Below, in pieces: positions 36,331 to 46,357 of a stretch of 64,000 nucleotides of DNA. Position numbers and translations under genes: made by a program. Within the stretch, counting starts at the first letter, position 1. Each line of letters starts with the position of its first letter. The notes beneath the pieces were generated by a model. That model did no database searches. It was not told the origin of the DNA and worked only from the letters and a program-made list of their open reading frames with translations. The stretch is from Myxococcota bacterium (GTDB lineage Bacteria > Myxococcota_A > Polyangia > Polyangiales > Houyiibacteriaceae): the NCBI GenBank assembly GCA_039028875.1, contig JBCCHE010000002.1, positions 5,212 through 69,211 of the forward strand, written 5' to 3'.

Positions 36331-37041
36331 CTAGAGGCGTACCCCCTGGACCACTCTCGGGATCTCGCCGCCGAAGATGGCCGTCAACGCCGCGGGTGCG
36401 TCGTAGCTGTGCCGTTCGAGCGCCGCCTGAAGGACCTCGATCTCGACGGGCGCGTTGCAGACGCGGCATAGGTACTGGGCCAGAGACGAGGGCACGGTCG
36501 TCGCGGATGCGGGCTGCAGTTCGTGTTCGAGCCGCTGGAGATGCGATGCGAAACCGATGTTGGGAAGGACTTGAAACCGTTTGGAACGAACATGGCAGAG
36601 GGCGTCGAAGAAGCTCATGCCCTCGGTCTTCATGAGCCACGCGACCACCAAGGTGGCCGAGCGGCTGACGCCAACTTCACAGTGAACGAAGAGCTTGGCG
36701 TCCGAATCGCCTCTCGTGGCGACTTCGGCGTAGTCGAAGAAGCTCGAGAGGGCGCCACCAATGTCCTGGTGCATCCCGTCCTGCACCCCGAGAAAGAGAT
36801 GCTCGAAGTCCTGCTGAAGGAACACCATGTCGGATCGGTCATGCTCCATCAGGCAGCTAACAACGTGGGTCACGCCCGCGCGCCTGAGCTCCTCTACGCG
36901 CTCCCGGTTCGGGCGGGCGCCCAGATACAAACTCGGGGTGATTTCGGTGAAGAAGCTCTCACGCAGATCCACGGCGAGGTCCAGATCGAGGCCAAGCCGC
37001 GAGAGCACGCGATCCACCAGGCCGCTGAGCTTATCCTTCAT
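36331..37041 (-). CDS. Dual-specificity (eukaryote-like) protein phosphatase
   Basis: HCX5R active site VHCEVGVSRSATLVVAWLM, preceded by SLYLGARP...VTHVVSC and an upstream acid loop (GVQDG). Confidence 0.8.
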   Translation of the reverse strand: MKDKLSGLVDRVLSRLGLDLDLAVDLRESFFTEITPSLYLGARPNRERVEELRRAGVTHVVSCLMEHDRSDMVFLQQDFEHLFLGVQDGMHQDIGGALSSFFDYAEVATRGDSDAKLFVHCEVGVSRSATLVVAWLMKTEGMSFFDALCHVRSKRFQVLPNIGFASHLQRLEHELQPASATTVPSSLAQYLCRVCNAPVEIEVLQAALERHSYDAPAALTAIFGGEIPRVVQGVRL

Positions 37042-37060
37042 GGAGCTCTCTTTTCACATG

Positions 37061-38383
37061 CTAGAACCCGGCCTTGATTGCCAGGTTGATCCCGAACTGA
37101 TTGCTCGTGATGGGGACAATGTTGACAGTGGTGTCGGTGGGGACGGATTGGTCAGCGATGAAGGCGCCAGCGAGCTGACCCTTGCCATACGCGTACGTAC
37201 CAGCGACGGCGAAAGCAAGGTAAAAGCCCCCCTCCCCCCGTTCGGGTGGCTTCTCGCGGTTCGCGAAGTCGAAGCCGATGGTGAAACGGTAGTAGTCGAT
37301 CTGAGATTCACCGAGTTGGTCGAGGCTCCCGACGGAGCTGAAGTCCGTGGAGAAGCCGCCACCCACCTTGAGACGCTTCGACAGCCGGACGATTCCACCG
37401 ATGCGCGCGTCCGCCACGGTCTTCCAATCGATCTCGAAGGGTGCACTGTCGAGCGCGAACCGGACGATCACGTCGGCTTCCACCCAGCCTCGCTGACGAA
37501 TCCAAGCGATCCCCGCCCTTGCAAGACCCGGCTCGACGCCCGACCACGTCCCGCTGAGGCCGTCGGTCGCAGCCCCTTGGAACGTCGGTGGACCTTGAGG
37601 CGGCGCGATCGTTTCGGTGAAGGTTCGGTCCTCGTTGAGGAAGACCAAATAGCTTGGCGTCGCAACCATGACCCCGATTCGCAGGGTCTTCATCGGGGCG
37701 ACCTGAACACCAAACTTCATCTGCAAGCCACCGCCCGAGAGATTCTCGGTGATGGTCTGGGTCGACGCGCCCCCGGCGCCCCCGTCAATGCCGCCCGCAA
37801 GGATTTGGTTTCCGCTTTGGGTGGCGAACACGATGTCGAAGCCACCGCCAATGAGAAGCTTGTCGTTGCCTTTCTTCCAAGCGAGCGCGGAGCTGACGTG
37901 GTAGACCGACCGCGTTTGCTCGACGGCGGCGAAGAAGTCGCTCTCGGGCTGCTGGCCGGGTTGGGCACTCACGCTGTCCTGAAGGAAACGGTCGCTTACG
38001 CGCGAGAAGAAGAAACCAAGACCCCAGCGAAGGTCGACGCGCGGCGACGCGACGAAGGTCAGCGCCCGCGGAATAGCGATGAACGTGGAGAAGTCGCCAG
38101 GGCTTTGCGGGCCCGACTCGAGCGTCAGCGCTCCCGGTGCCTTGACCAGATTGTAGCTGAGTACGGAGCCCGTCAGGTCCACCGACCGTGCATCAAGGCG
38201 AGCCACGCCTGCCGGGTTGAACCACATGGCGCCGCCGGTGTGTACGTTCGCGACCACGGCGCCGCCTGTCAGCGCGACGTCCGTACCAGCCACGACATCG
38301 TCGCCGTTCTGGGCAGCCGCGGAGTTGGCCACCAAGACGCCTGCCGTGGCAACGAACGCTGCGAGCCGCACCATCGGGCGCAT
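37061..38383 (-). CDS. Outer-membrane beta-barrel protein, FadL/TodX-like
   Basis: Signal peptide MRPMVRLAAFVATAGVLVANSAAAQ. It has AMWFNPAGVARL (NPAG as in FadL-type proteins), an alternating amphipathic strand pattern and a C-terminal ...NLAIKAGF. Confidence 0.7.
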   Translation of the reverse strand: MRPMVRLAAFVATAGVLVANSAAAQNGDDVVAGTDVALTGGAVVANVHTGGAMWFNPAGVARLDARSVDLTGSVLSYNLVKAPGALTLESGPQSPGDFSTFIAIPRALTFVASPRVDLRWGLGFFFSRVSDRFLQDSVSAQPGQQPESDFFAAVEQTRSVYHVSSALAWKKGNDKLLIGGGFDIVFATQSGNQILAGGIDGGAGGASTQTITENLSGGGLQMKFGVQVAPMKTLRIGVMVATPSYLVFLNEDRTFTETIAPPQGPPTFQGAATDGLSGTWSGVEPGLARAGIAWIRQRGWVEADVIVRFALDSAPFEIDWKTVADARIGGIVRLSKRLKVGGGFSTDFSSVGSLDQLGESQIDYYRFTIGFDFANREKPPERGEGGFYLAFAVAGTYAYGKGQLAGAFIADQSVPTDTTVNIVPITSNQFGINLAIKAGF

Positions 38384-38458
38384 ACTACAGCCACGATCCG
38401 AGTCTCGGAAATCCTAGACGGGAACGGGGGTCAGGCCGGGACGGCAGGCAACGCGACC

Positions 38459-44355: not shown

Positions 44356-44412
44356 AATCGCATCACCCTTGCAACGGTTCGCCGCCTGCGTTCGTATGGG
44401 AAGAACAAGGCC

Positions 44413-45048
44413 ATGGATAGGAAGCAGTTCATCGACCAGCTCGCCGCCGAGCCGCGCCCCGCCAAGCGTCTTTCCACGGGCGTCGCGATCGCTCTTTGGC
44501 TCGCGGCCTCGTGCACTTTCGTCGTCGGCGCGACGTTGGCGACCGGTGACCTCAGGCCCGGCGTCGGCGAACAGCTTCGAGACTTCCCTCGCTTCGCGGC
44601 GGAATGCGCGTTGGGACTAGTCGCGGGGATCTTCGTGTTTCGGACGGGCCTGCTTCTGTCGGTCCCCGGAAGACTCCATTGGCGCCGCGCGGTTCCGCTG
44701 GCGTTGGCGCTGATCGCACTCTGGATCGGCGCCTATGTGTACGGACTGTGGAGCCCGGCGCTCGAGCCCTCGATGGTCGGGAAGCGGCCCAACTGCTTTG
44801 GCGAGACGTTTCTGTTCTCGAGCTTTCCTTTGGCTCTCGGACTGCTCCTCGTAGCACGCCGCGCGCCGCTGCAACGCGCTTGGGTCGGCGCACTGGTTGG
44901 GGCGGCTTCAACGTCGTTGCCAGCGCTGATGATGCAGGTCGCGTGCATGTACGACCCCCGACACATTCTTCAGTTTCACTTGCTGCCGATCCTGATCGTC
45001 GGACTCGTCGGCGGTGCGATCGGCTCCCTGGTGCTTCGTCGCGTCTAG
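44413..45048 (+). CDS. NrsF-family (DUF1109) membrane anti-sigma factor
   Basis: N-terminus MDRKQFIDQLAAEPRPAKRL is followed by six hydrophobic helices. It lies immediately downstream of the ECF sigma gene. Confidence 0.7.
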   Translation: MDRKQFIDQLAAEPRPAKRLSTGVAIALWLAASCTFVVGATLATGDLRPGVGEQLRDFPRFAAECALGLVAGIFVFRTGLLLSVPGRLHWRRAVPLALALIALWIGAYVYGLWSPALEPSMVGKRPNCFGETFLFSSFPLALGLLLVARRAPLQRAWVGALVGAASTSLPALMMQVACMYDPRHILQFHLLPILIVGLVGGAIGSLVLRRV

Positions 45049-45151
45049 CGGCGGATTTCGTTCCGACTCGTTGCCACAAGTCGCCGCCCGGGACCGTAGG
45101 GGTGGATCGACGGGGATTGGCCCCGTTTGGAAGAGACAGGAGATCCCACTC

Positions 45152-46357
45152 ATGCCCCCACGCACGTTCCCCGGCGTCGCACTTGGCGCCGTCTTTCTTT
45201 CGATACTTGCGTTCGCTCCGCGCCCCGTCGCCGCAGACGCGACCCGCGTCGTCGTGACGATCGAGAACCTCGCCCCGGAGTTCGGTACGTCTCAGACCCC
45301 ATTCTGGGTTGGCTTCCACGAGGGTGTTTTCGACACCTATGATGGCAATACCCCCGCAAGCTCCAACCCGAGACCCGGATCCGTCGCCATGGAGCGCCTA
45401 TGCGAAGACGGAAACAACGGACCGATCAGCGAAGACTTCGCGGCACTGTCCACCGGCGTCGACGCGACGATTCCCGGTCCAAACGGGCCGATTGCGCCCG
45501 GCGACGTGGCCACCCAAACGTTCCTGCTCGAGAGCACCAGCGAGGACAACCGCTACTTCAGCTACGCCTCGATGATACTGCCGAGCAACGATTTTTGCAT
45601 CTCGAACGGGAACCCTCTCGCACACCCGTTGTTCGACGACGAGGGCAACTTCATCGCGTCGGACTTCTTCGTCACGGGTGCGGAGACCCTCGATGCGGGA
45701 ACCGAAATTGGCGACGAAATCCCGGAGAACACGGCGTTCTTCGGTCAGTCTTCGCCTGATACCGGTGTCGACGAGAACGGGCTCATCGGGACCCTCGGGA
45801 GCGACAGGCCCGCCGTTGGGTTCTTGCCAAAAGGCAGCGGTGGCATTCTCGACGATCCAAGATTTCGGATGGGCGACTTCCTCGTTCCTGGCTACCCGTT
45901 CGTGAAGATCAGTTTCACCGCGGCGCCGGCCGTCGTCGAAGACCTGGAGTTCAAGTCGCGCCTCGACGGACGTGGCGTCGTTCCCTCGGTGCGAACCAGC
46001 GGTCGGGCGATCGCCATCTACACACTCCGCGAACAGGGAAGCCTCCTTCGTTTCAAACACTTCTGGCTCGGCCTTCGCGACGTCATCGCGGTCGAGCTAC
46101 GACTCGGTGCCGAGGGCGAGAACGGCCCCGTCATCGCTTCGCTCTTCGCCGAGGACGAAGGCTCTGACGCGACAACGCGTTCAAGGCGCCGCTTTGGCGT
46201 CGCGGGGAGCCTCACGTCGTCGGGACTCGAGGGTCCACTCACGGGTCAACCTCTCGATGCGTTGATCGGAGAGATCCAAAAAGGGAACGTCCACGTGGTC
46301 ATCCGGACCCGACGAGCCCCTGAAGGCGAAGTCCGGGGTCAGCTCGACGAACTCTAA
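45152..46357 (+). CDS. Secreted Spondin_N + CHRD two-domain protein
   Basis: Internal ATG at 45152 with AGGAGA 9 nt upstream, plus a signal peptide. The Spondin_N-like region is VVVTIENLAPEFGTSQTPFWVGFHEGVFDTYDGNTPAS...MERLCEDGNNGPISEDF. The CHRD-like C-terminus is LDGRGVVPSVRTSGRAIAIYTL...KGNVHVVIRTRRAPEGEVRGQL. Confidence 0.7.
   Translation: MPPRTFPGVALGAVFLSILAFAPRPVAADATRVVVTIENLAPEFGTSQTPFWVGFHEGVFDTYDGNTPASSNPRPGSVAMERLCEDGNNGPISEDFAALSTGVDATIPGPNGPIAPGDVATQTFLLESTSEDNRYFSYASMILPSNDFCISNGNPLAHPLFDDEGNFIASDFFVTGAETLDAGTEIGDEIPENTAFFGQSSPDTGVDENGLIGTLGSDRPAVGFLPKGSGGILDDPRFRMGDFLVPGYPFVKISFTAAPAVVEDLEFKSRLDGRGVVPSVRTSGRAIAIYTLREQGSLLRFKHFWLGLRDVIAVELRLGAEGENGPVIASLFAEDEGSDATTRSRRRFGVAGSLTSSGLEGPLTGQPLDALIGEIQKGNVHVVIRTRRAPEGEVRGQLDEL

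Follow-up and report, generated by a model that had tools for sequence, protein, structure and literature searches.

We analysed a 64-kb window of DNA (one stretch of 64,000 nucleotides) from a Myxococcota bacterium and describe here a plus-strand gene cluster at 42466-46357, in which genes for a cytochrome c-DM13 lipoprotein, an extracytoplasmic function (ECF) sigma factor, an NrsF-type anti-sigma factor and a secreted spondin-CHRD protein follow one another. We consider it quite probable that this cluster is a SigF/NrsF-type (ECF16) sigma/anti-sigma module together with its local regulon, that is, a known regulatory class with a variant -35 element and new targets. Systems of the ECF16 SigF/NrsF class are well known to sense oxidant and metal stress in the periplasm; among their few characterised outputs are bufferin metallophores, methionine-rich scavenger peptides and methionine sulfoxide reductases. 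In the window, the same switch appears to be wired to two large, never-studied families, the TsdA-like cytochrome c-DM13 proteins and the spondin-CHRD proteins. A first-pass annotation of this DNA had described a wider system of seven genes in two divergent units at 36331-46357 that would function together under ECF sigma control. All seven open reading frames were found at the listed coordinates and on the listed strands; the idea of a co-functioning system holds for the plus-strand half, which has a shared motif and recurring gene links, but not for the minus-strand half.

Domains were assigned by profile searches judged against the curated Pfam and NCBIfam cut-offs. The sigma factor gene (43801-44355, plus strand) encodes 184 aa with matches to Sigma70_r2 (E 1.4e-12) and Sigma70_r4_2 (E 1e-10), which is the ECF architecture of regions 2 and 4 only. 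The protein scores 60.9 bits against TIGR02937 (sigma70-ECF, cut-off 42.9), and its best NCBIfam subfamily matches, to the unnamed models PRK12536 and PRK12539, fall below their cut-offs; it was assigned to the SigF/ECF16 type by its partner and its promoter. The partner gene (44413-45048, plus strand) encodes an NrsF-type (DUF1109) membrane anti-sigma factor of 211 aa that matches PF06532 over residues 10-209 (60.6 bits, cut-off 26.8, E 2.4e-16) and in which six hydrophobic segments, the predicted helices, can be read from the sequence.

To place the window among its relatives, we used three sets of loci (L001-L170): 80 loci from a scan of a genome collection with a spondin-CHRD alignment, 80 from a metagenome scan with an NrsF alignment, and 5 around cytochrome c-DM13 homologues. 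Co-conservation was assessed by tblastn of all window proteins against these sets. The spondin-CHRD set comprises Myxococcota, Arenicellales, Competibacteraceae, Planctomycetota, Actinomycetota, Verrucomicrobiota and Cyanobacteria. The sigma and nrsF genes were paired in 66 of the 80 related loci, and the sigma factor shares 96, 67 and 48% identity with those of L006, L166 and L001, respectively, the sigma gene always being followed by nrsF. The first-pass annotation had pointed to three cysteines of NrsF; two of them, in NCFGE (C128) and VACMY (C178), are the only cysteines invariant in the window, L006 and L001, but the cysteine in ASCTF is not conserved, and C34 and C65 vary.

Three candidate ECF16-type promoters lie on the plus strand of the cluster. 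P1 (TGCCAC-N17-CGTATGGG, 42466-42496) precedes the cytochrome c-DM13 gene at 43 bp from its start codon, P2 (TGCAAC-N17-CGTATGGG, 44370-44400) is located in the sigma-nrsF intergenic region, and P3 (TGCCAC-N17-CGTAGGGG, 45072-45102) precedes the start codon of the spondin-CHRD gene by 50 bp. All three sites, which share the general form TGC(C/A)AC-N17-CGTAnGGG, are intergenic, each at a distance of 13-50 bp from the start codon that follows it. A search for a shared ECF motif upstream of 42539 and 45152 had been proposed; such a motif is present there and also upstream of nrsF. On both strands of the 64 kb, TGCSAC-N17-CGTA occurs exactly twice (at 42466 and 45072; 0.24 expected). The extended pattern TGCMAC-N17-CGTANGGG occurs three times in the window and never in 100 shuffles, counts that are partly circular in that the pattern was derived from the same sites later counted. 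A search allowing one mismatch gave 10 matches against 7.9 expected, and only the match in the sigma-nrsF intergenic region is meaningful.

The motif can be compared with the ECF16 promoter consensus, (T/C)GTAAC-N17-CGAA (PMC8315932), and with the Caulobacter sigma-F site, GTAACC-N16-CGAA (PMC3511200). The spacing equals that of the consensus, the -10 element is a one-base variant (CGTA for CGAA) and the -35 element is divergent; no exact (T/C)GTAAC-N17-CGAA site was found near the cluster. We also tried the Caulobacter motif GTAAC-N15-18-CGAA as the motif of this sigma factor and rejected it; its two window matches lie at a long distance from the cluster and are no more than chance would give.

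The distribution of the motif in relatives follows the sigma/NrsF pair. Outside the window, the extended motif occurred only in L006 (three sites) and L166 (two sites). In L006, the -35 and -10 elements of P1, P2 and P3 are kept while the spacers diverge, which is the pattern expected of a promoter. In L166, one site precedes nrsF (TGCCAC-N17-CGTAAGGG) and the same elements precede the relocated cytochrome c-DM13 gene, i.e. the motif moves with the gene. TGCGAC-N17-CGTA stands before the spondin-CHRD orthologues in L001, L002 and L096, TGCGACC-N16-CGTA also before the first gene in the sigma operon of L001, which is sigma-like but degenerate, and GTAACC...CGTA between the sigma gene and nrsF of L149. 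Among the first 85 loci, the core motif was confined to L001, L002 and L006, the only loci there with a sigma/NrsF pair; none of the 82 loci of that first set without the pair had it.

The gene links recur as well. The best related locus, L006 from a Myxococcota metagenome-assembled genome, is 85-87% identical to the window in DNA and 90-96% in proteins. The order sigma, NrsF, spondin-CHRD is shared by L006, L001, L002 and L096, of which the last three belong to different Myxococcota and have sigma and NrsF proteins 48% identical to those of the window. The link to the cytochrome is found in L166 (sigma factor 67%, NrsF 59% and cytochrome c-DM13 74% identical), where the gene order is sigma, nrsF, cytochrome; in the window, the cytochrome gene precedes the sigma gene. 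Both plus-strand links, for which the first-pass annotation had proposed a neighbourhood comparison, were thereby seen in relatives.

The metagenomic NrsF loci extend this picture beyond the closest relatives. In the 80 loci (425 kb), [TC]GTAAC-N17-CG[TA]A was found 72 times, compared with 2.4 in shuffled sequence; typically one site stands ahead of the sigma gene and another immediately behind nrsF. This result validates both the locus type and the layout with a target gene right after nrsF. Spondin-domain genes adjoin the sigma/NrsF pair in 13 of these loci, and in 5 of the 28 that have at least 600 bp on both sides. Their place is immediately before the sigma gene or after nrsF, and they encode single-domain proteins that match NF038123 at ~150 bits and Pfam Spondin_N at 31-36 bits. 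Where enough upstream sequence was available, an ECF16-type site preceded the spondin gene in 8 of 9 loci; seven of these sites follow the strict consensus and the eighth, in L096, is TGCGAC. Our literature search, within the searchable library, found no paper that joins spondin with ECF sigma factors.

The closest known system is SigF-NrsF of Caulobacter crescentus, the ECF16 prototype (PMC3511200). As in the window, an ECF sigma gene is followed by the gene of a six-helix DUF1109/NrsF protein, two cysteines face the periplasm (C131/C181, compared with C128/C178), the promoters agree in spacing and have similar -10 elements (GTAACC-N16-CGAA and GCCACA-N16-CGTA), and a small regulon of exported proteins lies beside the regulator. 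The two systems differ in the -35 element (TGTAAC in Caulobacter, TGCCAC/TGCAAC in the window), in the host, an alphaproteobacterium versus a myxococcotal bacterium, and in their targets: sigma-F-dependent genes of Caulobacter include CC2748, CC2907 and the CC3254/CC3255 locus (PMC3511200), in place of the cytochrome c-DM13 and spondin-CHRD genes. Further ECF16 systems, BcrS-AbcS of Brucella melitensis and SigF-NrsF of Azospira suillum, confer hypochlorite resistance (PMC8315932, PMC4436054). They resemble the window in having targets directly beside the sigma gene and a periplasmic redox defence, in the window a predicted one, as output, but these targets are a methionine-rich peptide and an MsrPQ-type methionine sulfoxide reductase, neither of which was seen in the window cluster. 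Brucella AbcS has 211 aa, as does the window NrsF, with cysteines at C129/C179 (PMC8315932); the equivalence of C128/C178 to the published cysteines is drawn from position and protein length only, not from a direct alignment.

From these likenesses we propose the following mode of action. In an unstressed cell, the six-helix NrsF would retain the sigma factor at the inner membrane, by analogy with its family. By extension from the Caulobacter, Brucella and Azospira systems, a thiol-reactive stress in the periplasm, for which oxidants such as hypochlorous acid (HOCl) or reactive oxygen species (ROS), or soft metals, are candidates, would act on C128/C178 and release the sigma factor. RNA polymerase carrying it would start at the TGC(C/A)AC-N17-CGTAnGGG sites, which are sequence features to which we attribute promoter function. 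P1 would drive the cytochrome c-DM13 gene and probably, by read-through of the 83-bp gap, sigma and nrsF as well, giving positive feedback; P2 would drive nrsF and give negative feedback; and P3 would drive the spondin-CHRD gene. The outputs would be the cytochrome c-DM13 lipoprotein and a spondin-CHRD protein that is soluble in the periplasm. Scans for terminators and sigma-70 promoters gave uninformative, chance-level counts, with no terminator-like site in the cytochrome-sigma gap.

A possible second ECF-type promoter, TGAAAC-N16-CGTA, can be read at 43762-43787 (plus strand), 13 nt before the sigma start codon; in L006 its -10 element is CATA. The related pattern (T/C)GAAAC-N16-CGTA also stands before solitary cytochrome c-DM13 homologues (L168 at 5892, L169 at ~5937 and L170 at ~5975) and before a small gene of 76 aa near them (L168 at 4112 and L170 at 4187, both on the minus strand).

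The first candidate target (42539-43717, plus strand) is a lipoprotein of 392 aa with a TsdA-like di-heme cytochrome c (cytochrome c domain E 1.9e-14) and a C-terminal DM13 domain (PF10517, residues 291-385, 45 bits, cut-off 25, E 1.8e-11). Its two CxxCH motifs (C68-x-x-C71-H72 and C176-x-x-C179-H180), the lipobox Cys22, C113 (in NTCRVEW) and M226 are invariant in an alignment of 26 homologues. The family profile matches TsdA (4V2K) across both heme domains (residues 42-233, E 1.8e-10), and the nine best PDB matches of the AlphaFold model (predicted local distance difference test, pLDDT, 78) in Foldseek are all TsdA or TsdBA (E 4e-5 to 6e-4). The window protein shares with TsdA of Allochromatium vinosum (4V2K/4WQ7) and with TsdBA (5LO9) a di-heme c-type cytochrome of ~200 residues. 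In TsdA, heme 1 is bound by CxxCH and Cys96 and heme 2 by CxxCH and Met209; by alignment only, C113 falls on Cys96 (in GDCFERS, counted from His53) and M226 on Met209. The window protein differs from TsdA in having only 17-20% identity, a lipid anchor, the additional C-terminal DM13 domain and Thr at Lys208. Some homologues have a recorded match to the Pfam model SoxA-TsdA_cyt-c (PF21342), which the window protein lacks. Sequence and model together suggest that the first 250 residues form a TsdA/SoxA-like di-heme cytochrome with a predicted His/Cys-ligated heme, followed by a DM13 beta-sandwich. By analogy, the protein is most likely a periplasmic oxidoreductase or electron relay acting on a sulfur- or thiol-containing substrate. 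The architecture occurs in at least 385 protein clusters.

The second candidate target (45152-46357, plus strand) is a secreted protein of 401 aa with a standard signal peptide ending in AADA. Its N-terminal domain matches the NF038123 spondin-domain model (residues 34-212, 114.2 bits, cut-off 40, E 8.3e-33), whereas Pfam Spondin_N (PF06468) gave no match even at E<=10; scores above the Spondin_N cut-off (31-36 bits, cut-off 24) are reached by P0031 and other longer homologues and by the single-domain relatives in L131 and L133. The C-terminal domain is a true CHRD domain (PF07452, 52.6 bits, cut-off 24.1, E 1e-13), and the family profile matches the chordin CHRD structures 9IGM and 9QVV at E 1.6e-5. 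A PDB sequence search with the spondin domain gave no match, and an exact-protein look-up of the window protein and of P0168 returned no record. The AlphaFold model has a pLDDT of 83.

Conservation of the spondin domain is very high: dozens of its acidic, aromatic and His residues do not vary. Its most likely role is the binding of a specific small ligand or a metal. C84 (in LCEDG) and C149 (in DFCISNG) are kept together or replaced together across the family (A/S at the first position, W/F at the second), a co-variation that suggests a disulfide and, with it, an oxidising, periplasmic location. The HxH motif of the CHRD domain (AHLHLG), which is HLH or HVH in 23 of 25 other aligned homologues, reads VELRLG (ExR) in the window (46094-46102, residues 315-317) and in L006 (gene at 3378-4586), and AHLQLA in the L001 orthologue. 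The sigma/NrsF-linked CHRD copies may have lost a putative metal-binding His pair. The spondin-CHRD architecture is found in at least 767 protein clusters, with relatives in at least 547 species genomes from many phyla.

Several points weigh against reading the cluster as an ECF16 module with these targets, beginning with the circularity of the extended-motif counts. With TGCCAC or TGCAAC, the -35 element is not the canonical TGTAAC; no TGC(C/A)AC-type motif lies directly upstream of the sigma gene in the window; and read-through from P1 into the sigma gene is assumed only from the absence of a terminator-like site. P1-P3 are taken as promoters from sequence alone. Spondin-CHRD genes are solitary, without the sigma/NrsF pair, in ~77 loci, and the cytochrome c-DM13 homologues in L167-L170 have no adjacent pair. 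Because most spondin-CHRD genes and several cytochrome c-DM13 genes are solitary, the linkage of the plus-strand genes, although real, is lineage-specific. No sigma-F motif was found upstream of the spondin-CHRD genes in 81 loci without a sigma/NrsF pair, so the two-domain family is not generally sigma-F regulated. On the side of the targets, the CHRD domain lacks its HxH motif, Foldseek with the whole two-domain model returned nothing at E<=0.001 and no F-spondin or mindin, only a weak Cu,Zn-superoxide-dismutase-like signal, and the biochemical roles given above for both proteins are guesses.

Some of these points would also fit another explanation, in which the motif is the operator of a different regulator or a lineage-specific intergenic repeat, the gene link is mere synteny and the regulon lies elsewhere. 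Apart from the divergent -35 element and the many homologues of both target genes that do not lie beside sigma/NrsF, an inverted repeat overlapping P1 speaks for it. This repeat, GTGGC-N8-GCCAC (42454-42471), overlaps the -35 element of P1 and has been retained in part in L006; it could simply belong to the promoter or serve one of the nearby TetR regulators as an operator. However, two conserved blocks, a variable 17-nt spacer and a CGTA -10 element fit the published ECF16 consensus, the canonical TGTAAC sites of relatives are placed alike (after nrsF and before spondin genes), and in L166 the motif has travelled with the cytochrome gene. We therefore regard this explanation as rather unlikely.

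Going beyond the local ECF16 module, it is conceivable, if on balance somewhat doubtful, that spondin-domain proteins, and in Myxococcota TsdA-like cytochrome c-DM13 proteins, are recurrent dedicated outputs of ECF16 systems and form an unrecognised periplasmic pathway of defence or repair against oxidant, reactive-sulfur or metal stress. If this were true, it would provide a first physiological context for spondin, CHRD and DM13 domains, for which no bacterial function is known, and stress induction, if confirmed, would be a testable handle on domains that are otherwise familiar almost exclusively from extracellular matrix and signalling proteins of animals.

The remaining genes of the cluster lie on the minus strand, outside the module. 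The largest (38459-42295) encodes a probable lipoprotein of 1278 aa, with a lipoprotein-type N-terminus and matches to VWD (PF00094, 55 bits, cut-off 22.9, E 1.5e-14) and Laminin_G_3 (PF13385, 66 bits, cut-off 27.6, E 5.6e-18); a Big_2 match (PF02368, 16.9 bits) is below its cut-off of 22.8. Between the N-terminal part and the VWD domain, at residues ~697-790 (~39926-40207), lies a linker of ~90 residues that consists almost entirely of Asp and Gly (DDDGDDDD..., GDGDGDG...). Only five homologues were found at E<=1e-10, the best with 41% identity over 47% of the length. The adjacent gene (37061-38383) encodes an outer-membrane beta-barrel candidate that is weakly FadL-like: FadL/OMPP1/TodX (PF03349, Toluene_X) scores 16.8 bits, below the cut-off of 29.7, a PDB sequence search gave no match, and a signal peptide and C-terminal Phe are compatible with an outer-membrane barrel. 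A clear FadL/TodX outer-membrane protein is encoded 16 kb away on the plus strand (54214-55467, Toluene_X at 1.1e-16), and the candidate shares with this true paralogue only a weak N-terminal match of the NPAG type (E 1e-4). The third gene (36331-37041) encodes a dual-specificity phosphatase (DSPc, PF00782, 76.4 bits, cut-off 33.5, E 2.4e-21) with the HCX5R catalytic loop VHCEVGVSRS at residues 119-128. Inspection of its sequence revealed no signal peptide; the protein is probably cytoplasmic and, because a signal peptide is absent, not an extracellular component.

That the ECF sigma factor governs all seven genes as one co-functioning system for the cell surface or adhesion, as the first-pass annotation had it, is very unlikely in the light of these data. 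The genes are adjacent and divergently arranged, several products are predicted to be exported, and the FadL-like gene adjoins the cytochrome c-DM13 gene in L006 too. However, L006 lacks a 4-kb segment (38444-42449) that contains the complete VWD/LamG gene together with 154 bp from the left side of the proposed divergent promoter region: by blastn, L006 1-644 corresponds to window 37800-38443 and L006 680-14547 to window 42450-56319, leaving 35 bp in place of the segment. The sequence comparison indicates that the VWD/LamG gene is a lineage-specific accessory gene and no conserved partner of the module. No ECF16-type motif was found upstream of the minus-strand genes, even at one mismatch or with a relaxed pattern. 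In ~165 other loci, tblastn detected none of the VWD, FadL-like and phosphatase genes beside sigma/NrsF, spondin or cytochrome c-DM13 genes, except for the FadL-like gene in the near-identical L006. Together with the probable cytoplasmic location of the phosphatase, these results set the minus-strand unit apart, and its three genes appear from sequence to be neighbours that are not linked to the module.

Other claims made for the cluster as a whole fared unevenly. Of the domains that had been named, DSPc, VWD, Laminin_G_3, cytochrome c, DM13, the sigma regions, NrsF and CHRD were recovered above their cut-offs, but Pfam Spondin_N was not matched, NF038123 taking its place, and Big_2 and FadL/Toluene_X remained below threshold. 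The statement that six of the domains are uncommon in bacteria is overstated, since the spondin-CHRD and cytochrome c-DM13 architectures are widespread. Their joint occurrence in adjacent genes had been called unlikely to be chance; it was not kept at any other locus examined, so the clustering as a whole is no evidence of selection, and animal-like domains side by side in a Myxococcota genome are not in themselves evidence of one. We found no support for the metazoan-type or adhesion and matrix framing; both targets resemble redox or ligand-binding proteins of the periplasm and belong to large bacterial families. With animal chordin, the window protein shares the CHRD domain, and with the FS domain of F-spondin and mindin, it shares an N-terminal domain of the NF038123 family, some members of which reach Spondin_N. 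Unlike F-spondin and chordin, it has no thrombospondin, reelin or von Willebrand C repeats, its CHRD domain has ExR for HxH, and, unlike animal matrix proteins, it is predicted to be periplasmic and putatively stress-regulated.

An acquisition of eukaryote-like genes from animals by a host-associated, e.g. sponge-associated, bacterium for interaction with the host matrix is hardly credible: VWD, LamG, CHRD, spondin and DM13 are best known from animals and many of the related loci are marine metagenome-assembled genomes, but the cluster does not differ in composition from the remaining window (~63% G+C across the 64 kb, no break at the cluster), spondin-CHRD and cytochrome c-DM13 are large, deeply diverged bacterial families over many phyla, the bacterial spondin domain is too distant for Pfam Spondin_N or a PDB sequence search, and regulation by a stress sigma factor with a proposed thiol switch speaks for a role in envelope physiology.

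The cluster is flanked by ordinary genes, with a ferritin-like gene, a short-chain dehydrogenase/reductase (SDR) gene and a TetR gene on the left and a convergent alpha/beta hydrolase gene and a TetR gene on the right. An open reading frame at 46459-47625 (plus strand) was considered as a fifth gene of the operon and rejected as the non-coding shadow of the minus-strand gene 46549-47601, which encodes the alpha/beta hydrolase (Abhydrolase_1 at 5e-25) and is convergent with the spondin-CHRD gene.

Other sigma/NrsF loci showed further genes behind ECF16-type sites. Two secreted families without a Pfam match lie directly behind TGTAAC-N17-CGTA beside sigma/NrsF pairs: one of ~120-150 aa with the signature KERTKGRGAPG...YVTSQ (L142 10813-11178, L148 10752-11210, L156 5786-6154 and others) and one of ~300 aa with AAVPEFGTV.EG (L120 718-1608, L105 1966-2931, L165 1053-1967 and others). 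An extra sigma-like gene follows an ECF16-type promoter in L001 (8000-8602) and L100 (1807-2364); the former is degenerate, with a weak region-4 match only, and the latter is a full second ECF sigma gene located after nrsF, which hints at sigma cascades. Finally, the SDR gene of the window (34659-35984), 6.5 kb left of the cytochrome gene, is 55-58% identical to fusions of 3-beta-hydroxysteroid dehydrogenase (3-beta-HSD) and SDR that are convergent with the solitary cytochrome c-DM13 genes of L168 (7094-9115), L169 (7096-9132) and L170 (7200-9221), and this similarity is possibly a remnant of an older synteny.

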